29,235 nucleotides of DNA, from positions 1-29,235 of the forward strand of contig JAPLDX010000064.1 in assembly GCA_026391215.1 (NCBI GenBank), in the 5' to 3' direction. Shown in pieces: positions 4,607-20,740 of this stretch; the stretch's first letter is position 1, and every line of letters starts with the position of its first letter. The notes beneath the pieces are model-generated. The model had not been told where the DNA came from. It saw only the letters and a program-made list of their open reading frames with translations, and made no database searches. A program made the translations under genes and the position numbers. The DNA comes from Bacteroidia bacterium (lineage in GTDB: Bacteria > Bacteroidota > Bacteroidia > Bacteroidales > VadinHA17).

Positions 4607-5728
4607 ATGGACATATCGATAAAAGAATTGTTTACCAGGGAGAATTTTTCAAAAAATGATCTTATAAGGCTTCTTCAGGTTGAAGGAGAAGAACGTACTC
4701 TTCTGTTTCAGAAATCGGCAGAAATAAAAGAAAAATATATCGGCAATAAAGTATGGTTCAGGGGACTTATTGAATTCTCCAATATATGCGGCAAGGATTG
4801 CCTTTATTGCGGCATCAGGAAAGGCAATAAAAATCTCGTCCGCTATAATCTTACTGACGATGAGATACTTGCAGCTGCAAAGTTTGCCAATGAAAATCGA
4901 TACGGGTCGATAGCGCTTCAGTCGGGAGAACTGGAAAGCCCGGCTGTAGCTGACAGGATCGAGAACCTTCTTCATAAAATAAAAGAATTATCGTATGGTA
5001 AACTTGGCATCACACTTTCAGTTGGTGAACAGAAGCCGGAAGTGTACCTGAGATGGTTTGATGCAGGGGCGCACAGGTATCTTTTACGGGTTGAATCAAC
5101 AAACAAAGAGCTGTACGGTAAGATCCATCCAAAAAATGAAAAACATGATTTTCAAAGAAGGCTCGACTGCCTTAAGAGCCTTCAGTATATTGGCTATCAA
5201 ACGGGTACAGGTGTAATGATAGGGCTGCCATTCCAGACACTGGAAGATCTTGCCGGCGACCTCCTCTTCATGAAGAATTTCGATATTGATATGTGTGGTA
5301 TGGGTCCTTATATTGAGCATGCAGATACCCCGCTGATTCAGCATGCGGATAAGTTGCTACCCCTTAATGAGAGGTTTGACCTGACGCTGAAAATGATCGC
5401 CATAATAAGAATCATGATGAAGGACATTAATATTGTTGCTGCAACTGCCCTGCAGGCAATTGATCCTATCGGCAGGGAAAAAGCGATCAAAATTGGCGCC
5501 AATATAATTATGCCGAATATCACTCCCGGAAGATACCGTGACAGTTACAGGCTGTACGATAACAAGCCATGCACTGATGATTCAGCTGAAGATTGTCAGA
5601 GCTGTCTTGAAGCCAGAGTCTCACTTGCTGATGCAGAAGTTATTTATGGGGAATGGGGAGATTCAAAGCATTATGATGAAAGGCGCAAAGGCTTAACGGT
5701 ACAACGGCGCAACGGCAAGAAGAAATAA
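4607..5728 (+). CDS. hydE: [FeFe]-hydrogenase H-cluster maturase HydE (radical SAM)
   Basis: RGLIEFSNICGKDCLYCG (CX3CX2C), GTGVMIGLP, GANIIMPN, YDNKPC-X7-C-X2-C auxiliary cluster; next to hydG. Confidence 0.93.
   Translation: MDISIKELFTRENFSKNDLIRLLQVEGEERTLLFQKSAEIKEKYIGNKVWFRGLIEFSNICGKDCLYCGIRKGNKNLVRYNLTDDEILAAAKFANENRYGSIALQSGELESPAVADRIENLLHKIKELSYGKLGITLSVGEQKPEVYLRWFDAGAHRYLLRVESTNKELYGKIHPKNEKHDFQRRLDCLKSLQYIGYQTGTGVMIGLPFQTLEDLAGDLLFMKNFDIDMCGMGPYIEHADTPLIQHADKLLPLNERFDLTLKMIAIIRIMMKDINIVAATALQAIDPIGREKAIKIGANIIMPNITPGRYRDSYRLYDNKPCTDDSAEDCQSCLEARVSLADAEVIYGEWGDSKHYDERRKGLTVQRRNGKKK
5681..5720 (+). repeat. Degenerate 8-bp tandem repeat (~5 units) in the last codons of hydE
   Basis: aggcgcaa aggcttaa cggtacaa cggcgcaa cggcaaga. 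Confidence 0.55.
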
Positions 5729-5767: not shown

Positions 5768-6292
5768 TTAGAACACCATCTTACGAACATGCACTTGTTT
5801 TAATGCTCTCAAATCCCTTTCAAGATGTTCGCGCTGTTTTTTGTCACCTGTTAATTCCAGGATAATCAATCCGGCAGATTCTCCGAAAAACATCTCATTG
5901 ACTCCCATGCGTGTCCGGATATAACAGCCATAGATTGTCAATAGCTTCTGGACAGACTTTATCACCTCAGGTTTCTGATCAACCAGGATCCCAAGTATTT
6001 CCATTTCGCCTGCGGCTGATTCCTTTTCAGTCTTTGCTTTACCGCCCGTAAATACCATTTCACGGATCTCAACTCCTCCTATTTCTCCCAGATCTGAAAT
6101 AAGCTTCTTCGAATGTGCGGGATCGCTGCTCAGATGAAGTATGATAATTGCTTCCCTGCTGCATACATTATCCGTGACCTCATGAAATCCCAGGCGGGTT
6201 GTTATTACTCCTGCATGCCTGGAGAGAATCCCCTGGGTAAGACCTGCTTCTTTTATGCGGTCAATGATCTTAATTCCAAGTACTTTAATCAT
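5768..6292 (-). CDS. TM1266-like (iron-only hydrogenase system putative regulator) protein with two tandem ACT-like domains
   Basis: Two homologous halves (VLGIKI..ITTRLGFHEV..IIILHL and ILGILV..IRTRMGVNEM..LIILEL); 5 nt downstream of hydG, a typical context for this family. Confidence 0.7.
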   Translation of the reverse strand: MIKVLGIKIIDRIKEAGLTQGILSRHAGVITTRLGFHEVTDNVCSREAIIILHLSSDPAHSKKLISDLGEIGGVEIREMVFTGGKAKTEKESAAGEMEILGILVDQKPEVIKSVQKLLTIYGCYIRTRMGVNEMFFGESAGLIILELTGDKKQREHLERDLRALKQVHVRKMVF

Positions 6293-6297
6293 ATTGT

Positions 6298-7722
6298 TTA
6301 AAAATATAAATCTCTTTCGCCGTTTTTTATTCTTTCTATCTTCTCCTTCGTATTCTTTGCCACTCCCTCATCAAGCTTGGCCAGGTTCTTTTCAATTACC
6401 TTCCATCCTTTTTCTACAACGGTTCCCTCAGCATAATCACAGATATATTCTGAAAGAGTGAGTATTGCATTGGGTGTGCAGAACCGTTTGATGAATCCAG
6501 GGACAGAAAACTCCATGAAATGCTCACCTGTTCTTCCCATCCTGTAACATGAGGTACAGAACGAAGGCAGATAATCATTTGTCAGCAGTTCATCGATGAC
6601 CTCAGCAAGCGACCTTGGATCATTTATCTTGAATTGCTCACGGTTAAGGTTCTGAGCCTCATTCTTTGATTCAGCATATGATCCCAGCTCCAGTTTTGTA
6701 CCGCCATCTATCTGGGATACACCGTATTGCATAACTTCCCTTCTTACATCCGGAGCCTCTCTGGCTGTTAATATAAGTCCTGTATATGGAACTGCAAGCC
6801 TTAATATGGCTACCAGCTTTTTAAAATCTTCATCGCTTGTCTGGTATTGTCCGTTGATATTCAGGCTTAGAGCGTCTTTAATTCTGGGAAATGATATTGT
6901 ATGCGGACCTACATCATAACATGCCTCAAGGTGATTGGTATGACGGACAAGTCCCAACACCTCAAATCTCCAGTCATAAAGTCCGAAAAGAGCTCCGATC
7001 CCTACATCATCAATACCTGCCTCCTGGGCTCTGTCAAGAGCTGTGACTCTCCATTCATAGTCTCTTTTCTTTCCGCCGAGATGATACCATTTATAAGCCT
7101 CCGGGTGATATGTTTCCTGGAATATCTGATAGGTGCCTATACCTGATTCACCGACAGTTCTGAATCCATCAATATCGAGGGGCGCTGCATTTATATTGAC
7201 CCTTCGTATTTCGCCATGGCCTTTTTTCACACCATAAACTGTCTTGACCGTATGTGCAATATACTCAGGCGAATAGTCGGGATGTTCTCCATATACCAGT
7301 ATTAGCCTCTTCTGCCCGTTATCTTCAAGAGCCTCGACTTCCTTTATTATTTCCTTATCTGTAAGAGTCTTCCTTACAGCACCTTTATTTGAGGTCCTGA
7401 ATCCGCAATACTGGCAATTGTTGGTACATCTGTTTCCTACATATAGCGGTGCAAAAAGCACGATCCTGTTTCCATAAACTTTTTCTTTCAGCTCTTTTGC
7501 TCCCTGTTTGATCTCATCTGCCAGGTCAGTTCCGGCTGAATTAACAAGGATGGCTGTCTCTTTCATTGTCAGCCTCTGTTTATCAAGCGACTTTGAGATA
7601 ACTTCCCTTACCCTCTGCTTGTCAGGTTTTGTGTTGTTAATAAAATCCCATATCTCCTGAGGATCGATGAATGGCTTCATTCGCTGATCAGGGACTTTTA
7701 GTTTTTCAGGCGAGAACCGCAT
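6298..7722 (-). CDS. hydG: [FeFe]-hydrogenase H-cluster maturase HydG (radical SAM)
   Basis: LFAPLYVGNRCTNNCQYCGF, FQETYH, GPHTISFPR and a C-terminal CX2CX22C (CTSC...RFC). Confidence 0.96.
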   Translation of the reverse strand: MRFSPEKLKVPDQRMKPFIDPQEIWDFINNTKPDKQRVREVISKSLDKQRLTMKETAILVNSAGTDLADEIKQGAKELKEKVYGNRIVLFAPLYVGNRCTNNCQYCGFRTSNKGAVRKTLTDKEIIKEVEALEDNGQKRLILVYGEHPDYSPEYIAHTVKTVYGVKKGHGEIRRVNINAAPLDIDGFRTVGESGIGTYQIFQETYHPEAYKWYHLGGKKRDYEWRVTALDRAQEAGIDDVGIGALFGLYDWRFEVLGLVRHTNHLEACYDVGPHTISFPRIKDALSLNINGQYQTSDEDFKKLVAILRLAVPYTGLILTAREAPDVRREVMQYGVSQIDGGTKLELGSYAESKNEAQNLNREQFKINDPRSLAEVIDELLTNDYLPSFCTSCYRMGRTGEHFMEFSVPGFIKRFCTPNAILTLSEYICDYAEGTVVEKGWKVIEKNLAKLDEGVAKNTKEKIERIKNGERDLYF

Positions 7723-7746
7723 TGAATAACAGTATTATATAAGTTA

Positions 7747-7754
7747 CAAAGATA
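7747..7754 (-). promoter_or_regulatory. Bacteroidota sigma-A -7 element for hydG
   Basis: Minus-strand TATCTTTG matches TAnnTTTG, about 25 nt upstream of the hydG ATG. Confidence 0.65.
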
Positions 7755-7786
7755 GACAGAAAACATGTTTTAAATGATGACCCTTA

Positions 7787-8698
7787 TCAATATATCAGGT
7801 CTATTATCTCTTCTTTTGCAGAATCAATCCTGGTACGGGTTTTAGGATCTGACAAGCTTAGCGAGCCATGTATCTTCTTATGGAACAACAGGATAGAATC
7901 TTCTCCAACAAAAGCTTCAGGATCTTCAAAAATGTGAACCATCACTTCTGAAGTCCCTTTATTTTCATCCAGGATCAGAATCATTCCTTTTGAGTTAGAG
8001 CTTCCTGAAGTTACAGAAACTGCATATATGCCAGGAGATGGAAGAAGCTTGCACTCCTCGGTTATTGGTATTCTCTTGAATTCCGACAGATCCTGAAAAG
8101 TGTGATTCTCTGGCTTTCCCATAATAATGTAATAGTGATCAAGGTAAGCATTTGCCCTTTGAATATAACCTTCACTTATAGCCTTCCGGATTTTTGTTGA
8201 GCTGACTGTTTCGTGCTGCACTTCCTGTTCCGGAATCTCTTCTGCTTCAAAATTATATTTTGCTCTCCACCCCCAAAGCTGCCTATAATCTCCTTCCTGA
8301 TTGAATCCGAAGTGATGATTAAAGCCTACAACGACAACTCTGGCATGAAGAATATCATGAAGCAATTCCCTAACAAACTGTTCGCTGGTTATCCTTGAGA
8401 ATTCCTTTGTAAACCTGACTATAATTAAATTATCGAGGCCGGCTTTCCTCAGAAGCTCAAGCTTTTCCTCCTGTGAATTGATAAGCTTAAGACCTTTGCC
8501 TGCAGTCTCAGGATAAAGAACTTTTCTCGGATGAGGATCAAAAGTTATCAGGACCGATTCACCATTATTCTTTTCAGCCAGCATCCGCAACCGATTTAGT
8601 ATTGTTTTGTGACCAATGTGGACTCCGTCGAAAGATCCGGTTGTCACAACAGGATTCCTTATCCCTTTTACGTCTTCAAATCCTCTGAAAATCTTCAT
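7787..8698 (-). CDS. ribF: RibF-family FAD synthetase (FMN adenylyltransferase) with degenerate riboflavin-kinase domain
   Basis: GSFDGVHIGH, TFDPHP and VSSTKIR are intact. The C-domain lacks the GRxxGFPTAN, NxGxRPT and IExH motifs. Confidence 0.85.
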   Translation of the reverse strand: MKIFRGFEDVKGIRNPVVTTGSFDGVHIGHKTILNRLRMLAEKNNGESVLITFDPHPRKVLYPETAGKGLKLINSQEEKLELLRKAGLDNLIIVRFTKEFSRITSEQFVRELLHDILHARVVVVGFNHHFGFNQEGDYRQLWGWRAKYNFEAEEIPEQEVQHETVSSTKIRKAISEGYIQRANAYLDHYYIIMGKPENHTFQDLSEFKRIPITEECKLLPSPGIYAVSVTSGSSNSKGMILILDENKGTSEVMVHIFEDPEAFVGEDSILLFHKKIHGSLSLSDPKTRTRIDSAKEEIIDLIY

Positions 8699-8713
8699 GT
8701 TGCAATAAAGATG

Positions 8714-9337
8714 CTAGATAGTGTTCTCCTTTACGAAATATGCCACTTTTTCTATAGAGGTTATCATATCATATTCCTCAAGAAATACCCATGACGGAAC
8801 ATTAAGCGGTATGGTCGTATAATTCAGTATCCCCTTAATTCCGAACCGTACAACCTCTTCCGCGATCTCCTTTGCATAATCAGCAGGCACAGTCAGAATA
8901 GCTATCCGGATATCAAACTCCTTAATTATTTTCTCCATTTCATCGTGGTGAGAGCACCTGACTCCTGAGACCACCTTGCTGACTTTCTGCGGATCGGTAT
9001 CGAATGATGCCACAAGGTTAAGCTGTGATCTCTTTCCCTTGAAATAACCGGCAACTGCCCTTCCAAGGTTTCCTATACCTATGATGGCTACATTAATACT
9101 CTTTGGTGAATCAATAATGTTGCCGATTGTATCAATCAGTTCCTTTATATCATAACCCTTTCTCTGAACTGATGAATAACCTATCAGCATCAGGTCACGC
9201 CTGACCTGCACTGCTGTTATCTGCAGACGTGCAGCCAGATCATGAGAAAAGATGAAATTCTTCTTTTCATTCAGGCACTCAAGCAATGTTCTCCTGTACT
9301 CGCTGAGTCTCTCTACGGTTTTTCCCGGCAGTTTCAT
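8714..9337 (-). CDS. rex: Redox-sensing transcriptional repressor Rex
   Basis: TVERLSEY, QVRRDL and GY wHTH; IGIGNLGRA Rossmann fold; 207 aa. Overlaps the upstream gene by 4 nt. Confidence 0.95.
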   Translation of the reverse strand: MKLPGKTVERLSEYRRTLLECLNEKKNFIFSHDLAARLQITAVQVRRDLMLIGYSSVQRKGYDIKELIDTIGNIIDSPKSINVAIIGIGNLGRAVAGYFKGKRSQLNLVASFDTDPQKVSKVVSGVRCSHHDEMEKIIKEFDIRIAILTVPADYAKEIAEEVVRFGIKGILNYTTIPLNVPSWVFLEEYDMITSIEKVAYFVKENTI

Positions 9338-10479
9338 ATTATTTCAGGTAATGGTTGTGCGTTTTTTGGTAATATGACAATGAATTTAGTACCCACATCA
9401 GGTGTACTTTCCACCTTTATCTCACCATGGTACAATTCGATCACTTTTCTTACAATTGATAATCCGAGACCGCTCCCCGAGATATTCTTTGTCCGTTCGT
9501 TTTTTACCCTCATAAAATCCTTGAACAGGTTCTCTCTGTCTTCCGGAGAGATTCCTATTCCTGTATCGGAGAAAGTCAGAATTACTTCATTATCAGTACT
9601 GTCAATACTGATTTCAGCGTTGCCTCCAAACCTGTTGTACTTGACAGCATTTGATATCAGGTTATTAAAGATAATTTCCATGTCTTCAGGATCAGCCATA
9701 AACAATGAATCGTTCCTGACGTCAAGATTTATGCTCACCTCCATTTGTATGGCATAAGGCTGAACAGTGATTATTGCGTCCTTTGCGACTTCAGCAAGAT
9801 CAACTTTCTGAATCTTCTCATCTTTTCTTTCAAGACGGATCTTGGTGAAATCAAGCAGATCCATTATGAGGTTTCTCATGCCCTGTATCCTCTGAAGGGA
9901 TCTGTCGATCTGATTTGCATAGTCATCAATTTTATCGCCTGCCTGTTTCTCATGCATCATCCTGAGGTATCCTTCCAGTGCATTTAATGGAGCTTTCAGC
10001 TCATGTGAAAGAACTGAAAGAAACTGAGACCTGATCTTTTTCCCGTCCTCGGCCAGTTTATTAGTGACTTTTTTAAGGTAAAGCTGCTTGGATATGTTTT
10101 CAACGCTTGACTTAAGCTCCTGTGGTGTGAATGGCTTGGGAATAAAATCTGTTGCGCCATCCCTGGTAGCCTTGATGGCCACATCCAGAGATGCATAGGA
10201 TGTGATCATGGCAGTCGCTATATCATATTTCTTTTCCCGTATATACTCCAGCACCTCTACACCCTGCATCCCGGGTAATTTATTATCAAGAAGAAGTATA
10301 TCTGGTTTGTCTTTGTCAATGATGCTGATCCCTTCCTCTCCTGAAGCGGCAGTCATCACTTCAAATGTATAATCCTCATCCATGAAAGGATATGTAACAT
10401 GGAAGTTTCCCAGTATCCTGGTTACACCCGACCTTATCCCTGGTTCATCATCAATAACAAGCACCTTTAAAACAGCCAT
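9334..10479 (-). CDS. Hybrid receiver-histidine kinase (REC-HisKA-HATPase), cytoplasmic, no sensor domain
   Basis: VIDDE, LLDNKLP, FIPKPF; H-box SHELKAPL; N-box NLISNAVKY; DTGIGI; GSGLGL. Confidence 0.93.
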   Translation of the reverse strand: MAVLKVLVIDDEPGIRSGVTRILGNFHVTYPFMDEDYTFEVMTAASGEEGISIIDKDKPDILLLDNKLPGMQGVEVLEYIREKKYDIATAMITSYASLDVAIKATRDGATDFIPKPFTPQELKSSVENISKQLYLKKVTNKLAEDGKKIRSQFLSVLSHELKAPLNALEGYLRMMHEKQAGDKIDDYANQIDRSLQRIQGMRNLIMDLLDFTKIRLERKDEKIQKVDLAEVAKDAIITVQPYAIQMEVSINLDVRNDSLFMADPEDMEIIFNNLISNAVKYNRFGGNAEISIDSTDNEVILTFSDTGIGISPEDRENLFKDFMRVKNERTKNISGSGLGLSIVRKVIELYHGEIKVESTPDVGTKFIVILPKNAQPLPEII

Positions 10480-10480
10480 G

Positions 10481-10876
10481 TCAGATCTTTAATAGTTTCA
10501 TTATTTCCTGGTCGAGCTGTTCAGCCCTGATACCTTTCTCAAGATACCTGTCAGCCCTTATCCATGATTTTTCCATCCCGGAGTCAAGGCTGAAGGACAT
10601 TCCTGTCTCGCGCGATACTGCAGTTGCAAGGATCACCGGCACATCCGGATACAATTTCTTGATCTTGTAACACAGTATAAATCCGCTGTCATCGGTTTCC
10701 ATCATAAGATCAAATATCGCCAGGTCGGGCTTAAACTTAGTTATTATTGATTCCGCCTCTGCCTGGCTCTCCGCCGTAATTGTCTTATAGCCTGCCTTTC
10801 CCAGGTTAAACACCGTCTGGAAAAGATAATCAGGATCATCATCGGCCACCAAAATCGTGTAATCGCTCTTCTTCAT
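10481..10876 (-). CDS. Single-domain response regulator (receiver only)
   Basis: VADDD, IFDLMM (phospho-Asp), LATA, LEKG; 131 aa with no output domain. Confidence 0.9.
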   Translation of the reverse strand: MKKSDYTILVADDDPDYLFQTVFNLGKAGYKTITAESQAEAESIITKFKPDLAIFDLMMETDDSGFILCYKIKKLYPDVPVILATAVSRETGMSFSLDSGMEKSWIRADRYLEKGIRAEQLDQEIMKLLKI

Positions 10877-10933
10877 TGTATTGCAAATATCTGATAATTC
10901 ATTTTACTTATTCTGATCTGTAAATTACTTAAT

Positions 10934-10999
10934 GTCATGCAAGTCGTGCAAGTCGTGCAAGTCGTGCAAGTCGTGCAGGTCGAACAAGGTTTGCATGAC
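10934..10999. repeat. 9-bp tandem repeat (6 units, GTCRTGCAA) closed by an inverted copy
   Basis: gtcatgcaa, 3x gtcgtgcaa, gtcgtgcag, gtcgaacaa (10934-10987); ttgcatgac at 10991-10999 is the reverse complement of unit 1. Confidence 0.9.
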
Positions 11000-11000
11000 C

Positions 11001-12962
11001 TTATTCTTTTCTTCTTGGCAACACAATCTTAAAACTCGTTCCTGTCTTCCCTTTTGCCGGATCCGTATTGGACTCGACAGTTATCTGTCCTTTATGCATC
11101 TTCACAACACCATAGGCCGTAGCCAGTCCCAGTCCGGTGCCAAATCCCACGCCCTTGGTCGTGAAGAATGGTTCAAACATCTTAGCCTTATCCTTTTCTT
11201 TAATACCTGTACCTGAATCACTTACAGTAATGATTACATCGCTCAGGGTATCTTCGAGCAATATATTTATTTCTCCCCCTCCAGGCATTGCTTCAAATGC
11301 ATTCTTAACAAGATTATTAAGCACCTGCATCATCTGTTCCAGATCGAGCATTGCTTCAGGATTGGTTGTTTTATCGATAATTTTTATACTCACATTGTCA
11401 GGAACGATCAGGCTCTCCAGGCTTTGATTTACCATTTCCCTGATATTTACCAGCTGATGGTTAACCTGGTTTTTCCTGGCAAAATTCAGCAGTCCTGCCA
11501 CAATTTTCTTGCAACGCCCTGCCTGCTCCACAATTAGTCTCAGATCTTCCCTGACGGGATCACCGTCCTTACTTTCATCCAGTAAAATATTGCTATACAT
11601 GATAACTACCCCCAGAGGATTATTGAGCTCATGAGCAATACCTGCAGAAAGCTGGCCCATGTGTGCAAGCTTCTCAGATTGTTTAAGAGCCTGCTTCATT
11701 TCTCTGAGTTTCTCATTGGAGAGTGCAAGGTCGTTGACTGATCTATGGAGTTTTTCAATGGTATATGGAAGGCACATCTCCACTTCAGCAAGTCCTTTTT
11801 TTATGGCAACCGCATGTTCAACACAGCTTTCATAGCCGCATGCACCACAGTCAAGCTGATCTTTTTTTGTAATCTTGCCCATCGATATAAGCACCTCTTC
11901 AACATCTTGTTCTTCCAATACCAGTACCCGGTGATCATCAGCTTTATGATGAACCGAAAGATCGATGGAAGAAAACTCATTGAATGCCTGCTGCCAGGCA
12001 TTATGGTCTTCTTGCTGCATCTTGCCATTTGCATAGCTGCTGATCAGAGTTCTCCTGTTGTACTGTTTCCCGTTTTTTGAAAGACCCGGCCCCATAATGC
12101 ATCCTTCACAGCAAAGAAGCTCCACATGCTGTTTCTTTATAAGTCCTGCTTCAAACTCTTTCAGCGCCTCCTGGAAATCGATCCTTCCTTCAGCGGCAAT
12201 AATATTTCCAGTTATTGCGTCGTCGTTTATATTTGCAGCCTGCAACAGTCCCCTCGTGACAGGGAATATTGCTCCTCGCCGGCCGGCCGGAGGATCAAAA
12301 TCTGAAGGCTGGCTGTTTGCAGCAGAAATACCCAGGTTTGAGAAGAGTTCTCTCAATTCAACAAAGGTGATTGCCTCATCCACCTCACTGCTCTCAGCTT
12401 TTTTTGCAACACACGGACCGATGAAAACTACTTTTGTATCCTTTCCGTATTTTTCATGCATAACCTTGCTCATGGCAACCATTGGCGATACAACAGGAAT
12501 CAGGTTATCAGCAAGTCCGGGATGGTAGAATTTTACATAATTGACTATTGACGGACAATCAGATGAAATGTAGTATTCTTTACTTTCAGCTATAAGCTTT
12601 TTGTATTTTTCAGCAACAAGATCAGCTCCAAAAGAGACTTCAGATACGTATTTAAAGCCAATTGATCTTATCATTCCAACCAAAGATCTGTGATCACGGA
12701 TATCGTAAAACTCTGCGGGGAAACTTGGTGCCAGTATTGCAGCAACTTTTGGTTCATTTTTAATCAGGGTCAATACCCTATCGGTCGTATGAAGAAACAC
12801 TTTTGCACCCTGGCTGCAGACTTTTGTGCAGTTGCCGCAGGCAATGCATCTCTCATCTATCACCTCAGCCTGTCCTCCGACTATACGGATAGCCTTGGCA
12901 GGGCATTCCCTGACGCAGGTGTAGCATGTTCGGCAAAGTTCCTTTATTGTATATACCAGCAT
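11001..12962 (-). CDS. Sensory [FeFe]-hydrogenase-like domain fused to histidine kinase (group C type)
   Basis: Two CxxCxxCxxxC motifs, LAPSF, SSDCP, GPCVAKKAE, CCEGCIMGPG, FeS domain DCGACGYESC, coiled coil, AHELNNP, NLVKNA, DSGTGI, PFFTTK, GTGLGL. Confidence 0.9.
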   Translation of the reverse strand: MLVYTIKELCRTCYTCVRECPAKAIRIVGGQAEVIDERCIACGNCTKVCSQGAKVFLHTTDRVLTLIKNEPKVAAILAPSFPAEFYDIRDHRSLVGMIRSIGFKYVSEVSFGADLVAEKYKKLIAESKEYYISSDCPSIVNYVKFYHPGLADNLIPVVSPMVAMSKVMHEKYGKDTKVVFIGPCVAKKAESSEVDEAITFVELRELFSNLGISAANSQPSDFDPPAGRRGAIFPVTRGLLQAANINDDAITGNIIAAEGRIDFQEALKEFEAGLIKKQHVELLCCEGCIMGPGLSKNGKQYNRRTLISSYANGKMQQEDHNAWQQAFNEFSSIDLSVHHKADDHRVLVLEEQDVEEVLISMGKITKKDQLDCGACGYESCVEHAVAIKKGLAEVEMCLPYTIEKLHRSVNDLALSNEKLREMKQALKQSEKLAHMGQLSAGIAHELNNPLGVVIMYSNILLDESKDGDPVREDLRLIVEQAGRCKKIVAGLLNFARKNQVNHQLVNIREMVNQSLESLIVPDNVSIKIIDKTTNPEAMLDLEQMMQVLNNLVKNAFEAMPGGGEINILLEDTLSDVIITVSDSGTGIKEKDKAKMFEPFFTTKGVGFGTGLGLATAYGVVKMHKGQITVESNTDPAKGKTGTSFKIVLPRRKE

Positions 12963-12968
12963 ATCTTT

Positions 12969-14690
12969 TTATAAAAGAACATTTCTCTTCTCAAAATGAG
13001 TATAAAAGATCTTCTTATCTGATATCTCCTTGTTTTCCTTAATTAGCTTTTCATACAGGTTTCGAAGCACCGGTGATTTGCAGGGTAGGCTGACAGCATC
13101 CGATTCATCAGCCTGGTAGATCATTTTAGCCCTGCTCTTCTTTTCATCCTTTGATCCGTTGAATGTAAGACCGGCTCCGTTAATGCATCCTCCGGGACAG
13201 GTCATGACCTCGATAAGGTCATATCTCTTCCCTGCAGCCTGTGATGCTTTCAGTTTTTCAAGCCCTTTCAGTCCATCTACAACTGCGACATTGATTTCAA
13301 TCTCTCCAATGCTGAATGAGGCTTCCCTGAATGAGTTGCCTGACCGTAGTTTTTTGAACAACTGTCTCTCAGCTTCAGTTTTTGATATCCTGAACCAGGC
13401 TGATCTTATCACTCCCTCTGCCAGTCCACCTGATACTTCAGCTATTGCAGATACGGAGCTTCTTCCTTCCATTGGCTCGTCAGCCGGTTCCTGGTCAGCA
13501 TTTGTGACGTCAATCCCATATAGCCTGATAAGCCTTGCAAGCTCCCTTATTGTGAGGACTGCATCAACATCGCTGATCCCCTTCCTCATCATTCCATCAC
13601 GCCGTGCTTCAAATTTCATTGCAGTGCATGGTGTGACAGAAACAGAAAATATTTTTTCAGGTTTGACTGCTGATTGTCCGGCAACCAGAGTTTTTATTAG
13701 CACGCCCGTTATCTGCTGTGGTGATTTTATTGTTGACAGATCAGGGATTACCGAAGGCATAAACTGTTCTGCATATTTAACCCAGGCAGGGCAGGCTGTA
13801 ATATATAAAGGCTTATCTGCCTTATTTTCAATTCTCTCCATAAGCTGATCTGTAAGCTCGGATATACAGATATCAGTTCCTGTGCCGGTGTTAAAGACCT
13901 TATCGAATCCGATCTTCCTCAATACTGAATTAATGATCCTGTCAAAATCCCTGTTGTACCTGATGCCCAATTCTTCGGCAATCCCCACAGGGACAAGAGG
14001 TGAATACTGTATAACCTTAAGTATCTCCGGTTTGTTCAGGTATTCCTGTACTTCAGTAATATTGTGCTTCTCATGCAGTGCTGCCGTAGGACAAACAACA
14101 ACGCACTGTCCGCAGTGAATGCAGCTCGAGAAATTAAAGTCACGGTCCATAGCTGGCCCGACATGTGTTGACTTGCCTTTATTGATAAAGTCGATAGATG
14201 TGGAAGTGATTATTTCCTCGCATACCCTTATACACCTGCCGCATAATATACATTTTGAAAGCTCCCTGACTATTGCCGGGCTTGACTGATCGAGGCGTGG
14301 TTTGATCTTTTTTGAACGTATTCGTCTCTCACTTATGTTAAGTTCTTCTGCAAGCCGCTGCAGCTCACAATCAAGGTTTCGGTCGCAGTAAAGGCAGTCA
14401 TCAGGATGGTTTGAAAGAAGAAGCTCAACTATAGTTTTTCTTGCAGTAATAACTCTTGGTGAATGCGTCTTGATCTTCATCCATTCCTCTACAGGCTGTG
14501 AACAGGCAGTGACCAGTCTGTCGCGGCCTTCAACCTCCACAACACACATCCTGCAGGCGCCGGTAGGTGTAAAATCCTTCATCCGGCAAAGGGTTGGAAT
14601 GATGATCCCGTTGCGGTTAAGTGCCGAAAGGATAGTTTCTCCTTTTTCAGCTCTGATCTTTTTATTATTTACCTGTATTGTAAAAACCAT
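12969..14690 (-). CDS. hydA: HydA/HndD-like subunit of trimeric NADH-linked [FeFe]-hydrogenase with degenerate H-cluster pocket
   Basis: The 2Fe-2S, His-ligated 4Fe-4S (HPDDCLYC..C) and 2x4Fe-4S motifs are intact. H-domain motifs read ITACPAW, TPCTAMKFE and EVMTCPGGCINGAG. Confidence 0.85.
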   Translation of the reverse strand: MVFTIQVNNKKIRAEKGETILSALNRNGIIIPTLCRMKDFTPTGACRMCVVEVEGRDRLVTACSQPVEEWMKIKTHSPRVITARKTIVELLLSNHPDDCLYCDRNLDCELQRLAEELNISERRIRSKKIKPRLDQSSPAIVRELSKCILCGRCIRVCEEIITSTSIDFINKGKSTHVGPAMDRDFNFSSCIHCGQCVVVCPTAALHEKHNITEVQEYLNKPEILKVIQYSPLVPVGIAEELGIRYNRDFDRIINSVLRKIGFDKVFNTGTGTDICISELTDQLMERIENKADKPLYITACPAWVKYAEQFMPSVIPDLSTIKSPQQITGVLIKTLVAGQSAVKPEKIFSVSVTPCTAMKFEARRDGMMRKGISDVDAVLTIRELARLIRLYGIDVTNADQEPADEPMEGRSSVSAIAEVSGGLAEGVIRSAWFRISKTEAERQLFKKLRSGNSFREASFSIGEIEINVAVVDGLKGLEKLKASQAAGKRYDLIEVMTCPGGCINGAGLTFNGSKDEKKSRAKMIYQADESDAVSLPCKSPVLRNLYEKLIKENKEISDKKIFYTHFEKRNVLL

Positions 14691-14695
14691 GGCCG

Positions 14696-16630
14696 CTATT
14701 TGACTGTTATCGCGCTGAACTTACAAATATCAAAGCATATCCCGCATCCTGTACATTTCTCTTCGACAATGAAAAACGGCTGCAGCCTGGTCCCGTAAAT
14801 TGCATTGACAGGACATTTTGATGCACATGCCGTGCACCCTGTACATTTGTCGACATCTATTGAAAATGTTCTCAGGCCTCTGCAGATATTTGCCCTGCAT
14901 TTTCTGTCAAAAATATGTTCCTCGAATTCCTCCCTGAAATTCTTCAGTGCACTAAGGAAAGGATTTGGAGCGGTCTGTCCCAGTCCGCATAGCGATGTAT
15001 CCTTCATTACTGAGGCAATGCTCTCCAGCTGCATTACACCTTTAAAGCGTTCGAGGGTGGTTCCTGAATCCTCATTCAGGGGTTTCTTTATTATACTTTC
15101 AAGTATCTCAAGCATTCTTCCTGTTCCTTCACGGCAGGGAATGCATTTTCCGCAGCTCTCATTACGCATGAATTCCATATAGTACCTTACCAGGTCGACC
15201 ATGCATGTATTTTCATCTATAATGACAAATCCGCCTGCACCCATGCCAATACCCTTTGCCTTCATGACATCAAAATCGATAGTCATATCCAGGTTATCAC
15301 GAGTGATGAACGAACCGGATACGCCTCCCACCTGGATGGCCTTGAATTCTTTTCCTTCCTTTATACCGTCTGCTATGTCTTCAAGTATTGTTCGTACTGA
15401 GGTTCCCATTTCAACTTCCACCACTCCCGACATGCGTCCTTTTCCTGCTATTGCAAAAATTTTTGTTCCGGGACTGTTCTCAGTACCTAGAGTGCGGAAC
15501 CATTCAGGACCATTCTGCATAATCACCGGCACATTCATAAGAGTCTCCACATTATTTATCACAGTCGGTTTGCTGAATAATCCTGATGTTGTCGGGAATG
15601 GAGGTTTAAGCTGGGGCATTCCCCTTCTGCCTTCAATGGTGTTGATCAGTGCTGTTTCCTCTCCGCAAACAAAAGCGCCTGGTTCCTTTCGAATTACAAT
15701 ATCCAGATTGTAACCGCTTGAAAATATGTTATGTCCGAGAAGTCCGAATTCTCTTGCCTTGTTAATGGCAAGCTGAATTATTTGCCTGGCATGCTCTGAT
15801 CCTTTCCTGAAGAATATAATTGCATTTGAAGCTCCTATGGCGTAAGATGCTATGGCTATACCTTCGATAAGCCTGAAAGGATCGCTTTCAAGAAGTGTCC
15901 TGTCGGTAAATGCTCCGGGATCACTCTCTTTAGCGTTGCATATCAGGTAACGGGAAGTTGAGCTGGTATTAAGCGCCTGTTTCCATTTAAGGCCTGTAAG
16001 ATAGCCTCCTCCGCTCCTTCCTCGCAGCCCGCTTCTCTCAATAATATCACATACTTCTTCAAAAGTATAGTGTCGTATAGCTTTAGCAAATGCCCGGAAT
16101 CCGTTACGGGCTATGTATTCAACAATGCTCTCAGGATCATAGCATCCGCAATTATTCATTACGATCTTCTTTTGCCGGGCGAAAAAAGGCATCTCTTCAA
16201 TAAAAGGTATTCCCGACCACATCTCAAATCCGTGGCTCCCTTGCTGTCCTGCAAGGTCATCTTCATTGATATCATTATGAAAAACGCCATTCAGCAGCAG
16301 CTCAACTTTTTCTTCTGTAATATTTCTGAAATAAAGCTTGTTTTTACCAGGAAGATGGATGCAGACCAGGGGTTCAAAGTTAGCAGGACCGAGGCAGCCA
16401 ACTTTTATCAAACTGGCTTTCAAAGCATTATCATCAATATATGCTTGTATTACTGACCTTGTTTTTTCATATCCGGCAATTATGCTGCTTGTTCCGGAAG
16501 ATATATAGATGACAGGAAATCCTGTTTTCTCACGCCTCACCTCCTGAAGAACCTTTTCAGTTTCTGCAGGCAAGGTGTCTGATTCGAACAGGAGTACCTT
16601 CTCAATCATGAATTTCTTCAAATCATCCAT
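14696..16630 (-). CDS. hydB: HydB/NuoF-like flavoprotein subunit (divergent)
   Basis: GLRGRSGGG, FVCGEETAL, NNVETL, ESCGKCIPCREG, SLCGLGQTAPNP and C-terminal 2x4Fe-4S. Confidence 0.88.
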   Translation of the reverse strand: MDDLKKFMIEKVLLFESDTLPAETEKVLQEVRREKTGFPVIYISSGTSSIIAGYEKTRSVIQAYIDDNALKASLIKVGCLGPANFEPLVCIHLPGKNKLYFRNITEEKVELLLNGVFHNDINEDDLAGQQGSHGFEMWSGIPFIEEMPFFARQKKIVMNNCGCYDPESIVEYIARNGFRAFAKAIRHYTFEEVCDIIERSGLRGRSGGGYLTGLKWKQALNTSSTSRYLICNAKESDPGAFTDRTLLESDPFRLIEGIAIASYAIGASNAIIFFRKGSEHARQIIQLAINKAREFGLLGHNIFSSGYNLDIVIRKEPGAFVCGEETALINTIEGRRGMPQLKPPFPTTSGLFSKPTVINNVETLMNVPVIMQNGPEWFRTLGTENSPGTKIFAIAGKGRMSGVVEVEMGTSVRTILEDIADGIKEGKEFKAIQVGGVSGSFITRDNLDMTIDFDVMKAKGIGMGAGGFVIIDENTCMVDLVRYYMEFMRNESCGKCIPCREGTGRMLEILESIIKKPLNEDSGTTLERFKGVMQLESIASVMKDTSLCGLGQTAPNPFLSALKNFREEFEEHIFDRKCRANICRGLRTFSIDVDKCTGCTACASKCPVNAIYGTRLQPFFIVEEKCTGCGICFDICKFSAITVK

Positions 16631-17110
16631 CTATTCATTTTCAATTATATACCTGAGCTTCTTAATGAGCTCCGGCAACTGATCTGCTTTAATATGTGTG
16701 TGATACTCCCCGTTGACGCTTATTACCGGACCATGATTACAGCCCCCCATGCATGTTTCAATTTCATAGCTGAAAATTCCGTCCCTGCCCGTCTGCCCCG
16801 GATCCAGCCCGGTTTCTTCCATGATCTTATTGATGACATACTGTGATCCATTAAGGAAGCATGATGTGCCGTTGCAAATTTTAATCTGAACTTTTCCTGC
16901 AGGTAAAAATCTGAACTGATCATAAAAGGTTGCAAGCCCGTAGATCTTTGTAGTGCTCAATCCCACAAAGCTGCCTGCCCTGATAATAGCCTCCTCAGAT
17001 AAATAACCACTGTCATCCTGTATCTCCTGGAGCATTGGAATAAGATCCTCCCTTCTGCCAGGTTTGTACTTTTTAAGTATTAAATCGATCTTTGTACTCA
17101 TCAGTACCAT
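16631..17110 (-). CDS. hydC: HydC/NuoE-like 2Fe-2S subunit (start at 17110 or 17101 rather than 17137)
   Basis: LIPMLQEIQ, IYGLATFY, CNGTSC...CMGGC. A promoter element at 17125-17132 lies inside the longer ORF-track call. Confidence 0.88.
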   Translation of the reverse strand: MVLMSTKIDLILKKYKPGRREDLIPMLQEIQDDSGYLSEEAIIRAGSFVGLSTTKIYGLATFYDQFRFLPAGKVQIKICNGTSCFLNGSQYVINKIMEETGLDPGQTGRDGIFSYEIETCMGGCNHGPVISVNGEYHTHIKADQLPELIKKLRYIIENE

Positions 17111-17124
17111 AGAAATATAATACA

Positions 17125-17132
17125 CAAATATA
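17125..17132 (-). promoter_or_regulatory. Bacteroidota -7 promoter element for the hydCBA operon
   Basis: Minus-strand TATATTTG matches TAnnTTTG. Confidence 0.65.
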
Positions 17133-17141
17133 TTCAATTTA

Positions 17142-17159
17142 TTGTTATAAAATAAACAT
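17142..17159. promoter_or_regulatory. Degenerate second Rex-like operator
   Basis: TTGTTAT-AAAA-TAAACAT, overlapping the perfect site by one base. Confidence 0.45.
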
Positions 17160-17176
17160 TGTTAATTTATTAACAA
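17159..17176. promoter_or_regulatory. Rex operator (perfect palindrome)
   Basis: TTGTTAA-TTTA-TTAACAA matches the TTGTTAA-N4-TTAACAA Rex box; rex lies in the downstream operon. Confidence 0.8.
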
Positions 17177-17352
17177 TAAAATATTAAAAAATAGTATTGT
17201 TATTGAACAAGCTATTTAATTGTAAAACAGCCCGTTACTGAAATATAGACAAAATAATGCCTAATAATTTGCCTCATTCACACTTGACGTCATCTATTTA
17301 ATTCTATGAATTTTACGTCCTCCAGGCATGATTGCCGCATGAAAATAATTAC

Positions 17353-17360
17353 TACTTTTG
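17353..17360 (+). promoter_or_regulatory. Bacteroidota -7 promoter element for the hfs-like operon
   Basis: TACTTTTG matches TAnnTTTG, about 31 nt upstream of the ATG at 17392. Confidence 0.65.
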
Positions 17361-17366
17361 AGGTTG

Positions 17367-17384
17367 TTGTTTATTTATAAACAG
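17367..17384. promoter_or_regulatory. Rex-like operator over the predicted start site of the hfs-like operon
   Basis: TTGTTTA-TTTA-TAAACAG: 7-4-7 near-palindrome with the same TTTA spacer as the perfect site. Confidence 0.65.
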
Positions 17385-17391
17385 TAAAGAG

Positions 17392-17646: not shown

Positions 17647-17664
17647 CGTAATACAGGGACGAGA

Positions 17665-19545
17665 ATGAGCAAAACAAAGCCTGTTTTATATATAAATGAT
17701 TCCAAATGCAGGAATTCATATTCATGTGTCCGGGTATGTCCGGTAAACGCGATTGAGGTTAAGACACAGAAGCCCCATCCCACAATTATTCCGGAAAGAT
17801 GTATCGGGTGCGGATTATGCTATATTTCCTGCTCACCGCGTGCCATTGAATTCCGGGATTCAAAGGAAGAGGTCAGGGCATTACTTTCCTCTGACAGAAA
17901 AAAGGTAGCCCTGATTGAGCCAAGTATTGCGTCTGAATTTGACGATATTACCGACTACAGAAAATTCGTGGCAATGATCCGCACACTGGGATTTGATTAT
18001 GTGCATGAGGTTTCATTTGGCGTAGATCTGATCGCATCAAAATATGCCGATCTTTTCAGCACCTCGGAAGGCAAGTATTATATTACTGCCAACTGCCCTT
18101 CAATAGTCAAGCTCATAGAAAAATTCCATCCGGAACTGGTTCCTAATCTTGCTCCCCTTATTTCGCCAATGATTGCAACTGCAATGGTAGTCAGGAAGTT
18201 ATACGGACCTGAATCAGCTGTTATCCAGATCGGGCCATGTATAGATGCAAAAGATGAGGTGATGCTGTATGAATCCGGAAAGCTTATTGACGGAGTTCTT
18301 ACCTTCATTGAATTACGCCAGCTTTTTGATGAATCCGGGATACAGGAGAAGCTTGTTAAAATGTCGGAGTTCGATCCCCCGTTCGGATACTGGGGCGCTC
18401 TCTATCCGGTGCCGGCTGGAATAATACAGGCAGGAGGAATTAAGCGCGATATGGTATCCAGCAAGGTGATCACCGCATCAGGCAAGGAGGATATACTTGA
18501 AGCCATTAATGATTACGATAAATTCATTGACACCATACATCACCACTTTAACCTTTTCTTCTGTCACGGATGCCTTCTGGGTCCGGGAATGGAGCAGCAG
18601 AGGGAAAGGTTCAGGAGAAGAGCCCTTGTAAGCCGTTATACTGAAAAAAGGATTGGCACCCTCGATAAAGAGCTTTGGCAGAAGAACATGGACAAATGGC
18701 TAAAACTTGATTTTTCCAGAGGCTTCAAACCTGATGACCAGAGGATCCCTGAACCGCCTCCTGAAGCAATCAATGAAGTTCTGAAGATAGTCGGGAAACA
18801 GGATCCTGACGATGAGCTTGATTGCGGAGCATGCGGATATATGTCATGCCATGATTTTGCCTCCACAGTCGCCAAAGGGCTTGCCATTCCGGAAATGTGC
18901 CATACCTTTAACCTCCGGAACAAACAGGAGTATATTGAAACCCTAAGGCAGACAAACAGGAAGCTGGCCGAGACAAAAAAAGCTTTGAAAGAATCAGAGG
19001 AGATTGCGCTGAGGGAGAAAGAGATCGCACAGAGCGCTTCCGACATGATGAACAACATGCTCGAAAAACTTCCGATAGGTGTTGTGATTGTAGATAACAA
19101 CCTGAAAATACTTCATTCAAACCTGAGCTTTATTAATATTATCGGAGAGGATGCCAGGGCAATTTCGGAAGTTATACCGGGACTAGCCGGAGCGGATATT
19201 AAAACGCTTATCCCTTTCAATATTTATAACATGTTCACCTTTGTCATCAAAGAAAATGAACCTGTTGTAAGCAAGGATGTCCACCTGGAGGACAGAATGC
19301 TCAATATTTCGATCTTCCCCATCAAGAAAAATAAGATGTGCGGTGCCGTGATAAGGGATCTCTATTCTCCTGAAGTACAGGGAGAAGAGGTGACAAACCG
19401 GGTCAGCGAGGTAATTGAGAAGAACCTGGAGATGGTTCAGAAAATAGGTTTCCTTCTTGGCGAGGGAGCATCCGAAACAGAACAGATGCTTAACTCTATA
19501 ATTGAATCATACAAGAAAAGGGCCGATAAAAAAAACGGCATATAA
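17665..19545 (+). CDS. PAS-domain sensory [FeFe]-hydrogenase-like protein (HydS/HfsB-like)
   Basis: N-terminal ferredoxin motifs, TANCP, GPCIDAKDE, FCHGCLLGPG, DCGACGYMSC, coiled coil, PAS-like LPIGVVIVDNNLKILHSN. Confidence 0.88.
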   Translation: MSKTKPVLYINDSKCRNSYSCVRVCPVNAIEVKTQKPHPTIIPERCIGCGLCYISCSPRAIEFRDSKEEVRALLSSDRKKVALIEPSIASEFDDITDYRKFVAMIRTLGFDYVHEVSFGVDLIASKYADLFSTSEGKYYITANCPSIVKLIEKFHPELVPNLAPLISPMIATAMVVRKLYGPESAVIQIGPCIDAKDEVMLYESGKLIDGVLTFIELRQLFDESGIQEKLVKMSEFDPPFGYWGALYPVPAGIIQAGGIKRDMVSSKVITASGKEDILEAINDYDKFIDTIHHHFNLFFCHGCLLGPGMEQQRERFRRRALVSRYTEKRIGTLDKELWQKNMDKWLKLDFSRGFKPDDQRIPEPPPEAINEVLKIVGKQDPDDELDCGACGYMSCHDFASTVAKGLAIPEMCHTFNLRNKQEYIETLRQTNRKLAETKKALKESEEIALREKEIAQSASDMMNNMLEKLPIGVVIVDNNLKILHSNLSFINIIGEDARAISEVIPGLAGADIKTLIPFNIYNMFTFVIKENEPVVSKDVHLEDRMLNISIFPIKKNKMCGAVIRDLYSPEVQGEEVTNRVSEVIEKNLEMVQKIGFLLGEGASETEQMLNSIIESYKKRADKKNGI

Positions 19546-19555: not shown

Positions 19556-20740
19556 TTGAAAAAGGACTTTTATATAGAAGTAAACAGCCATCAGAGAAAC
19601 CACGATGGAGAGAGAATCTCCGGTGACGTATTTCTTTACAGGTATATAAAGGAAGAGGACAGAGTAATTGCGGTACTATCGGATGGCATGGGTCATGGTG
19701 TAAAGGCAAATATACTTGCTACCCTGACGTCGACAATGGCCCTTAATTTCACAAGCGAACATAAGGAAGTTGACCGGATTGCGGAAATAATTATGAATAC
19801 CCTCCCTGTCTGCAGCGAACGGAAAATAAGCTATTCAACATTTACAATTATTGATATAGACAGCAGCGGACGGGTAAATATCCTCGAATATGATAATCCT
19901 CCGACAATAGTCCTTAGAGGCAACCAGCAATTTGATCCATCATGGAAGAAAGTAGTTCTTGAAAAGGGCAAGCACTCAGGTAAAATACTGAAAACCTGCA
20001 CGTTCATGCCGGAAAAAGAAGACAGAATAGTAGTCTGCTCCGATGGAGTGGCTCAGAGCGGAATGGGCAGTGAGGCTTTCCCGTTTGGCTGGGAAAGGGA
20101 TAATGTAGCTACCTATGCTGCCGCTCTTGTAAACAGCGAAGCATCGATTTCGGCTGTTATGCTTGCAGGGAAGATTGTCTCCATGGCTCATAAGAACGAT
20201 GCATACAAGGCAAAAGATGATATAAGCTGTGCAATAATCTACTTTCGTGATCCACGTAAATTGCTGATATGCACAGGTCCCCCCTATGAAAAGGACAAGG
20301 ATAAGGAGCTTGCCGCAAAAGTGAAGGATTATAAGGGAAAAGTTATCCTGTGCGGAGGCACGACAGCAGATATATTGGCCAGGGAGCTGAACAGAAAAAT
20401 TGTAGACGAGCTGATATTTGAAGATCCTGAGCTGCCGCCCGAAAGTTTCCTTGAAGGTATTGACCTTGTTACTGAAGGAATACTGACCCTGCAAAAGGTA
20501 AATGAGATACTTAAGACCTACAACAACAGCACCAGGCTTGGAAAAGGTCCTGCCGACAAGATAGTTAAGCTGCTGATGGAAAGTGATGAGATACATTTTA
20601 TCATCGGGACCCGTATCAACATTGCCCATCAGGATCCGAACCTTCCGGTTGAACTGGAAATACGAAGGACCGTGGTAAAACGTATTGCAAGGCTTCTTGA
20701 GGAAAAATGGCTCAAGAACGTAACCTTTGAATATATTTAA
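19556..20740 (+). CDS. SpoIIE/PP2C-family Ser/Thr phosphatase (HfsC-like), TTG start
   Basis: SGDVF, LSDGMGHG, YSTFTI, CSDGV, DDIS and a C-terminal CGGTTA/LVTEGILTL domain typical of hydS-associated phosphatases. Confidence 0.9.
   Translation: MKKDFYIEVNSHQRNHDGERISGDVFLYRYIKEEDRVIAVLSDGMGHGVKANILATLTSTMALNFTSEHKEVDRIAEIIMNTLPVCSERKISYSTFTIIDIDSSGRVNILEYDNPPTIVLRGNQQFDPSWKKVVLEKGKHSGKILKTCTFMPEKEDRIVVCSDGVAQSGMGSEAFPFGWERDNVATYAAALVNSEASISAVMLAGKIVSMAHKNDAYKAKDDISCAIIYFRDPRKLLICTGPPYEKDKDKELAAKVKDYKGKVILCGGTTADILARELNRKIVDELIFEDPELPPESFLEGIDLVTEGILTLQKVNEILKTYNNSTRLGKGPADKIVKLLMESDEIHFIIGTRINIAHQDPNLPVELEIRRTVVKRIARLLEEKWLKNVTFEYI

Follow-up and report, generated by a model that had tools for sequence, protein, structure and literature searches.

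Several relatives of the [FeFe] hydrogenase subunit HydA are known that do without the H cluster or have lost their H2-linked function. In the literature searched, these precedents are HylA, the HydA subunit of NiFe-HydABCSL, and NARF; in the accessible text of PMC8924675, eukaryotic NARF is the one homologue said to have lost its H2 function. Sensory enzymes of the HydS type keep the residues that hydrogen bond to or stabilize the [2Fe] cofactor and vary only at C299, M353, and M497, as far as the available sections of PMC10055695 describe them. For the pocket itself, the accessible part of PMC10147833 lists K358, P324, and Q325 as contacts of the distal CN ligand; A230, P231, S232, P354, F417, and V423 as cavity residues; and R286, E282, S319, E279, and C299 as the proton path. 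Here, we describe hydA*, which encodes a HydA-like protein (HydA*) on contig JAPLDX010000064.1 of the Bacteroidia bacterium assembly GCA_026391215.1 (Bacteroidales; VadinHA17), a stretch of 29,235 nucleotides that is called the window below. An earlier note on this DNA had proposed that the protein keeps its Fe-S cysteines while its diiron-subsite residues are selectively lost. Our results lead us to favor, as reasonably likely, the view that HydA* is the HydA-type subunit of a diverged HydABC (Bfu-type) complex that would carry no [2Fe] cofactor and would serve in electron transfer only.

The alignment of HydA* with CpI contains no gaps over residues 206 to 409, so that the numbering of the two proteins is the same there, and after a single one-residue gap the CpI number is the HydA* number plus one. 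Read along this alignment by script, HydA* carries S230-P231-L232, L279, Q282, R286, I297-T298-A299-C300-P301, S319, T353-P354-C355, M358-K359, E361, A417-E418, and L423-A424, and further on it keeps E494, M496, C498, and C502 (the last three corresponding to CpI M497, C499, and C503), followed by GAGLT rather than GGGQP. Compared with catalytic enzymes, the replacements are C299A, M353T, K358M, E279L, E282Q, F417A, G418E, and S/A232L, and A230S is also among the pocket changes. The L1 motif reads ITACPAW instead of TSCCPxW, with the proton-relay Cys299 gone, and the L2 motif reads TPCTAMKFE instead of MPCxxKxxE, with Lys358 gone. Substitution of K358 is reported to have abolished [2Fe] incorporation in work by Knoerzer et al. 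in 2012. K359 is conserved separately from K358, in canonical and variant proteins alike. Every motif quoted in the earlier note was present as written, and the possibility it had raised, that the Lys, Cys, and Phe are present in a shifted register, was rejected on the gap-free stretch once HydA* had been aligned to CpI and T. maritima HydA; the substitutions stand.

Since residues are replaced at so many of the positions named in the available text of PMC10147833, HydA* is left without the lysine and with little of the cavity; of the proton path, S319 and R286 remain (L279, Q282, and A299 being the replacements). At the level of sequence, the pocket departs far beyond the variation seen in sensory HydS. 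Every Fe-S ligand is nevertheless kept, as had been claimed: the cubane ligands C300, C355, C498, and C502 are all present, and so are the accessory-cluster ligands C35/46/49/63, H95/C99/C102/C108, C147/150/153/157, and C190/193/196/200. The open reading frame is intact, with an ATG start, 573 amino acids, and no internal stop, which likewise agrees with the earlier claim. In Pfam terms, the protein consists of a [2Fe-2S] domain (Fer2_4, residues 3 to 77), a NuoG-type NADH-G_4Fe-4S_3 domain (84 to 123), and a double [4Fe-4S] Fer4 domain (140 to 205), which together are the BfuA-type N-terminal [2Fe-2S] and [4Fe-4S] set, followed by an H-domain (PF02906, Fe_hyd_lg_C, 229 bits, residues 226 to 506) and a weak small-subunit-like tail (20.8 bits, with a cut-off of 24). 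The Pfam search found no C-terminal FeS/PAS or kinase signaling domain in HydA*; PF04060 is present in two neighboring sensor-like proteins, HydS-HK and HydS2. The end-to-end phmmer matches in the PDB are T. kivui HydA1 (8a6t_A, E 8e-125), A. woodii HydA1 (7q4v_A, 3.2e-110), CpI chains (about 1e-102 to 1e-103), and T. maritima HydA (7p5h_A, 2.8e-99).

The remodeled pocket is not peculiar to one genome. A word-indexed search, in which 7998 candidates were scored, gave 120 best clusters of 570 to 573 amino acids that are 79 to 96% identical to HydA*, and together with HydA* these form a family alignment of 121 sequences. In this alignment, C300, C355, C498, and C502 are each present in 121/121 sequences, M358 is found in 120, T353 in 117, A417 in 115, and A299 in 112, the remainder at position 299 being I, V, or S and never Cys; A506 is invariant, and position 279 is I, L, or V throughout. 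Relatives of HydA* occur in 421 of the 448 matched stretches of a scan with one genome per species, and the best 80 of the 421 all come from metagenome-assembled genomes (MAGs) of uncultured Bacteroidales, Rikenellaceae, or Bacteroidota. Against two close orthologues, the ratio of nonsynonymous to synonymous substitution rates (dN/dS) of hydA* is 0.043 (dS 0.94) and 0.048 (dS 1.45); the same two comparisons yield 0.054 and 0.050 for hydB and similar values for the other operon genes. Thus, hydA* is under strong purifying selection, as the earlier note had presumed, and HydA* is a conserved family and not a product of drift or decay. The loss of catalytic residues and the two canonical HydAs encoded elsewhere in the genome would fit a decaying, functionless hydrogenase relic, an explanation that is scarcely credible in view of the intact reading frame, the low dN/dS, the many relatives, the invariant Fe-S cysteines, and the conserved synteny.

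To place this family in a wider setting, an exhaustive search was run against representatives at 50% identity; 150 were listed, 2 were left out for length, and 148 were aligned, of which 131 have residues at positions 300, 355, 358, 498, and 502. Scores drop sharply from 995 bits for the HydA* family's own representative (75% identity) to 519 bits. The top match of this search, at 1003 bits and 30% identity, is a 4122-amino-acid protein (P0122) with seven HydA-like stretches. K358 is missing in 41 of the 131 representatives, and in these the loss is again selective: C355, C498, and C502 are kept in 40, C300 also in 34, and K359 in 37, while C299 is kept in only 4, M353 in 4, F417 in 5, and E279 in 6. 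The named members of three such clusters are Bacteroidales MAGs. The residues seen at position 358 across the degenerate clade are A, R, M, E, L, S, G, H, N, Y, Q, and C, a range that fits poorly with a conserved ligand contact. In five further genomes with a derived pocket, position 230 is S, 279 is hydrophobic or Ala, 299 is H or A, 353 is T or S, 358 is A or M, and 417 is T or A, and most of the five have E418. The same selective pattern that had been noticed in the single protein therefore extends across the clade.

Two unrooted trees, one built with FastTree from 126 rows and one with an IQ-TREE mixture model from 46 rows, agree that the Bacteroidales variants form one clade (support 100) nested in a clade made up of degenerate pockets only (95 in the Shimodaira-Hasegawa-like approximate likelihood ratio test, SH-aLRT), and that its sister is a canonical group with the same operon (support 93). 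The direction of change was probably from canonical to degenerate, because all outgroups are canonical. In nine genomes of sister genera, the gene order HydC-HydB-HydA-HydS-HK followed by the two receiver proteins is the same, and their HydA, of 572 to 575 amino acids, is canonical at every position checked. Four degenerate representatives (P0155, P0212, P0161, and P0196) are placed among canonical HydAs, outside the main degenerate clade, which suggests that the diiron pocket was probably lost more than once. When 49 canonical sequences were compared with 35 from the degenerate clade, the mean entropy of 22 pocket positions rose from 0.28 to 1.93 bits, that of the H-domain went from 1.79 to 2.44 bits, and that of the 19 Fe-S cysteines was 0.10 bits in the former and 0.03 bits in the latter. 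Positions 272, 299, 358, 417, 418, and 423, invariant in canonical proteins, lie in the 58th to 97th percentile of variability in the degenerate clade.

The partner subunits encoded directly upstream have changed in step with HydA*. The four cysteines of HydC (cluster C1) are kept in 10/10 variant-operon sequences, and the same is true of the HydB cluster B1 (C493, C496, C499, and C548) and of the C-terminal clusters B3 and B4 (Cys 596 to 606 and 626 to 636). The HydB B2/Zn ligands are kept as well when mapped onto the A. mobile chain (C476 corresponding to Cys438, the His, and C578/C583 corresponding to Cys531/Cys536), and the best PDB match of the window's HydB is the HydB of A. mobile NiFe-HydABCSL (E 3.9e-168). 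The cysteine columns of the N-terminal thioredoxin-like [2Fe-2S] domain (cluster B5), in contrast, are occupied in 0/10, 6/10, 0/10, and 5/10 variant sequences versus 6 to 8 of 8 from canonical operons, and HydB has lost the otherwise universal Cys of GGPSGGC, which is now F441. Among 231 canonically invariant HydB positions, 28 differ in at least eight of the nine variant sequences, including GRGGGGF to GRSGGGY and NADEGDPGAFM to NA[KR]ESDPGAFT (NAKESDPGAFT in the window). The motifs changed here are ones that we take to be the flavin-site and nicotinamide-site motifs.

According to the accessible text of PMC11829005, the minimal bifurcating site is B1-FMN-C1 (FMN, flavin mononucleotide), and B1, B3, and B4 are the only clusters in the B subunit of the bifurcating C. 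saccharolyticus NfnABC, where B5 is dispensable. Since HydB and HydC keep the minimal set, the core could still work, and HydB, judged by its residues, has co-diverged with HydA* while holding on to this minimal bifurcating core. We therefore infer a complex of the following kind. HydA* would assemble with the products of the two genes just upstream of its own, which are NuoF-like and NuoE-like. Its electron wire, one [2Fe-2S] cluster, three accessory [4Fe-4S] clusters, and the H-domain cubane, would be intact, while the rebuilt diiron cavity and proton path make it most likely that the protein neither makes nor splits H2; instead, it may link the NAD(H)/ferredoxin core (FMN, B1, C1, B3, and B4) to a further partner or acceptor.

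The genes around hydA* are collected in Table 1. A series of minus-strand genes, in the order hydC, hydB, hydA*, HydS-HK, receiver, receiver-kinase hybrid, rex, ribF, hydG, and the TM1266-like gene, is separated by gaps of 0 to 124 nucleotides (nt), with hydA* in third place and HydS-HK 6 nt downstream of it. Over positions 5400 to 17800, sigma-70 promoters (29, with 26.9 expected) and terminators (11, with 10.5 expected) were found at chance frequency, so we base the operon structure on these short gaps and on synteny. Among 80 related loci, counting only those with enough flank, HydB is present in 72/72, HydC in 69/70, Rex in 57/57, HydS-HK in 64/68, the receiver in 62/64, the receiver-kinase hybrid in 59/62, RibF in 52/54, HydS2 in 61/64, and the phosphatase in 60/63. 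The locus with the closest relative, whose HydA* is 92% identical, is without HydS-HK, the two receiver proteins, and RibF, and HydA* is followed there immediately by Rex, HydG, and the TM1266-like gene.

Table 1. Features of the window at and around hydA*
Feature	Positions	Strand	Remarks
HydE maturase	4607..5728	+	348 bits, cut-off 255
TM1266-like putative iron-only hydrogenase system regulator	5768..6292	-	
HydG maturase	6298..7722	-	491 bits, cut-off 312
RibF-type FAD (flavin adenine dinucleotide) synthetase / riboflavin kinase	7787..8698	-	
Rex redox-sensing repressor	8714..9337	-	
RR-HK, hybrid receiver-histidine kinase	9334..10479	-	
RR, stand-alone response-regulator receiver	10481..10876	-	
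HydS-HK, histidine-kinase-linked sensory type	11001..12962	-	Two Fer4 motifs, H-domain, FeS domain, HisKA, HATPase
HydA* (HydA-like)	12969..14690	-	N-terminal [2Fe-2S], three [4Fe-4S] motifs, H-domain with cubane Cys and remodeled diiron pocket
HydB-like (NuoF-type) flavoprotein, 644 aa	14696..16630	-	Pfam, NCBIfam, alignment
HydC-like (NuoE-type) [2Fe-2S] subunit	16631..17137	-	Four Cys kept; Pfam, NCBIfam, alignment
Palindrome TTGTTAATTTATTAACAA, likely Rex operator	17159..17176		Perfect; 22 nt upstream of hydC start
HydS2, divergently transcribed sensor-like H-domain protein	17665..19545	+	
PP2C/SpoIIE-type phosphatase, paired with HydS2	19556..20740	+	

The palindrome in front of hydC is two mismatches away from what we take to be the Rex consensus. 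A site of the form TTGTNA-N6-TNACAA stands directly upstream of hydC in 55/82 loci and in 0/7 canonical-operon loci (L086-L093). Because Rex-like sites across the window occur at chance frequency (2 found, 2.73 expected), the candidate is argued from its conserved position. The operon's own Rex repressor appears to switch the operon, which, if so, would be expressed at high NADH.

Several observations weigh against an H-domain devoid of [2Fe]. Within the HydA* family the pocket is strongly conserved and E418 is invariant (121/121), a pattern that might reflect a new ligand site and not an empty pocket. M496, P231, Q325, S319, K359, and E361 are retained, and C299A and M353T, taken alone, are changes of the sensory type that are compatible with a bound [2Fe] according to the available part of PMC10055695. 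HydG follows the operon in 34/52 loci, and in the window both HydG and HydE are encoded at the same locus, so a link to the maturases is possible. We found no partner for a third substrate and no oxidoreductase in the conserved neighborhood, where an H-domain with K358 occurs only in HydS-HK. Moreover, other H-domain positions that are invariant in canonical proteins relax nearly as much as the pocket (1.33 versus 1.74 bits; Mann-Whitney p = 0.13), which makes the relaxation domain-wide rather than specific to the pocket.

Many of these points would be accounted for if HydA* still bound the diiron subsite in an unusual pocket and were a slow or H2-sensing hydrogenase within a HydABC complex, and it is also in keeping with this idea that the operon is flanked by two sensor-type genes, that all four cubane cysteines are kept, and that M353T/S is typical of sensory HydS. 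We consider such an enzyme possible but unlikely. K358, S232, A230, F417, and G418 are all replaced, and sensory enzymes, in the text accessible to us, keep the [2Fe]-stabilizing residues; the scatter of residues at position 358 and the pocket entropy of the wider clade, together with the near-complete loss of the proton path, speak against it as well, and the canonical hydrogenases encoded elsewhere in the genome suffice to explain the maturases.

The two sensor-like neighbors bear on a different question, namely, whether HydA*BC is a metabolic enzyme at all. HydS-HK has the motifs SSDCP, GPCVAKKAE, and GAIFPV and has kept K358 and F417, as in known sensory enzymes. HydS2 has TANCP, GPCIDAKDE, and GALYPV, with Ala at the K358 position, and may itself lack a diiron site. 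HydA*BC might be the redox-input module of the surrounding signaling system (HydS-HK, the two receiver proteins, Rex, and HydS2 with its phosphatase), reporting the state of NAD(H) and ferredoxin, possibly by docking to the sensor kinase. The close spacing of HydS-HK and the conservation of the regulatory genes in the synteny counts favor this explanation, as do a genome (G311) in which the variant module lies beside two canonical HydABC operons, the constant company of HydS2 and an extra canonical "873-type" HydA among the same-family genomes listed, and the precedent, in literature available in part, of add-on subunits feeding a catalytically empty HydA. However, HydA*BC occurs without HydS-HK in 4/68 loci and in a further genome (G230), and in sister genera HydS-HK is arranged in the same way next to a canonical HydA, so that the adjacency may reflect regulation of the operon only. 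On balance, a signaling role of this kind appears distinctly unlikely, and an electron-transferring HydA* without [2Fe] remains our preferred interpretation.

Five H-domain genes were counted in the source genome (3.39 Mb, 98.9% complete). Besides hydA* (231 bits) and the two sensor-like genes, they include two for fully canonical HydAs (332 and 319 bits); these lie on other contigs, and each has NuoF-like genes next to it. One of the canonical HydAs (L001:832-2613, contig C98) reads TSCSP, with Ser at the cubane ligand C300, as in A. woodii HydA1; S300 is found in 16/90 K358-bearing representatives, and a HydA variant with Ser at C300 is described in the available text of PMC11406978. H-domain genes are present in 39/61 genomes of the same family, and each listed genome bearing the variant also has a canonical HydA. 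In G230 (95% complete), from a family of 2 genomes, the variant gene is intact, a canonical HydA is missing, and HydE, HydF, and HydG gave no match above cut-off. We had taken this absence of maturases as evidence for a diiron-less HydA* and have dropped it: the complete genomes G311 and G166, as well as G075, have canonical HydA pockets without HydE/F/G matches, so that the absence does not discriminate, which also counts against our interpretation, with which G230 is compatible and no more.

G230 is unusual in other respects. Its variant operon (L118 and L119; contigs C62 and C160) runs HydB-HydA*-RR-RR-HK, with the HydS-HK gene missing, and elsewhere in the genome HydB and HydC are adjacent with no HydA between them, at the place where a canonical HydA sits in G311 and G166; tblastn found no HydA remnant between the two. 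More generally, 28 of 225 H-domain-positive genomes, all at least 90% complete, have no HydG match at E <= 1e-60 when the lists are crossed by eye. In another genome (G339:C21:59228-60083 and 64090-65391), a single TGA interrupts each of the canonical operon HydA and HydG, which could be decay, sequencing error, or recoding.

A catalytic partner of another kind was also considered. In the accessible text of PMC6085437, HylA is a HydA homologue without L1 to L3 that is encoded with NuoF-like and NuoE-like subunits, and HydA* could by this likeness be a HylA-type subunit of a bifurcating formate dehydrogenase, HylABC-FdhF2. PF00384 (molybdopterin oxidoreductase) has no match in the 98.9%-complete source genome, as opposed to matches in 11/14 control genomes, and no FdhF-type gene lies in the conserved neighborhood. 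We regard this explanation as very improbable and rejected it, because the genome is without a molybdopterin enzyme.

How such proteins are annotated matters for surveys. HydA* falls below every curated NCBIfam cut-off (TIGR02512, 352 versus 406; NF040763, 578 versus 765; NF040762, 434 versus 900). The concern that automated annotation would call it an active group A enzyme was borne out by the JGI names of its relatives ("iron-only hydrogenase group A" or HndD), but not by these scores or by the NCBI names ("2Fe-2S iron-sulfur cluster-binding protein" or [quoted passage not shown]). The H-domain is what gene surveys use to count [FeFe] hydrogenases, and the JGI labels of HydA* relatives name them as hydrogenases. 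Should the clade be unable to make H2, estimates of how much H2 uncultured Bacteroidales in sediments, peat, soils, and digesters can produce are too high. For enzymologists, canonical HydA, remodeled HydA, and co-diverged HydBs in the same operon slot of one bacterial family form a natural series from which one can learn which residues the diiron site depends on and how the HydABC core behaves in its absence. It would also add a Bfu-family case without an evident third substrate, and it draws attention to the wiring that connects H2 sensing and Rex with complexes of this kind.

Our results also invite two bolder speculations. One, which we hold to be rather unlikely, is that the whole clade of Bacteroidales "bifurcating hydrogenases" is an H2-blind look-alike that has kept NAD(H)/ferredoxin equilibration and forms the redox-reference half of an H2/redox signaling device, with HydS-HK, the receivers, Rex, and the HydS2-phosphatase pair as its partners. 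If this were true, what the sensor reads would in effect be the thermodynamic driving force behind the cell's genuine hydrogenases. The other, equally bold, is that the exposed H-domain cubane and the invariant Glu418 might perform a new chemistry on a small substrate.

Among the known systems, group A3 HydA (T. kivui, A. woodii, and T. maritima) provides the best matches, with the same domain order and the same operon partners; HydA* differs in its replaced pocket and proton path, in its sub-cut-off scores, and in the lost N-terminal [2Fe-2S] ligands of its HydB. Sensory HydS (groups C and D; TmHydS and TamHydS) shares with it the missing Cys299, a small residue at 353, and the association with kinases or phosphatases, but binds [2Fe] and keeps the residues that hold it, as far as the available sources describe, whereas HydA* has lost K358, S232, A230, F417, and G418, has M3 architecture and no C-terminal signaling domain, and is encoded with HydB and HydC. 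The literature searched contained no description of this Bacteroidales clade, and supplements (e.g., of PMC9304861 and PMC11406978) might contain such sequences.

The earlier note had suggested a Nar1-like pseudohydrogenase under selection. The selection and the loss of the diiron residues hold; the comparison with Nar1 is an analogy only, because HydA* is a bacterial M3-type HydA paralogue encoded with NuoE-like and NuoF-like subunits and its nearest relatives are canonical bacterial HydAs. Nar1/NARF (CIAO3), as described in the accessible parts of PMC8924675 and PMC6085437, are H-domain relatives that have lost H2-linked function and kept Fe-S cysteines; they are set apart, by description and context, in being eukaryotic, in acting in cytosolic Fe-S assembly, and in having no NuoE/NuoF-like partners.

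The proper frame for HydA* is the HydABC/Bfu family, in which similar architectures are already known. HylA of HylABC-FdhF2 (Clostridium/Gottschalkia acidurici), to which HydA* is likened by description only, is presumed to serve electron passage alone in the available text of PMC6085437 and PMC9304861. It differs in that HydA* strictly keeps the four cubane cysteines, in that the HydA* operon has a sensor kinase, receivers, and Rex and not a catalytic partner, in its host (Firmicutes versus Bacteroidales), and in that the source genome has no formate dehydrogenase. In the HydA of NiFe-HydABCSL (Acetomicrobium mobile; 7t2r/7t30), the H cluster is replaced by a [4Fe-4S] cluster and the subunit feeds electrons between the BfuBC core and the real catalytic site, according to the part of PMC9304861 available to us. 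That complex has the catalytic subunits HydS and HydL, neither of which is encoded at the HydA* locus, and 7t2r_A matches HydA* over residues 3 to 205 only, HydA* having a full H-domain of which the C-terminal part of 7t2r_A shows none by sequence. Of the systems compared here, HylA or the HydA of NiFe-HydABCSL is closer in kind to HydA* than Nar1 is.

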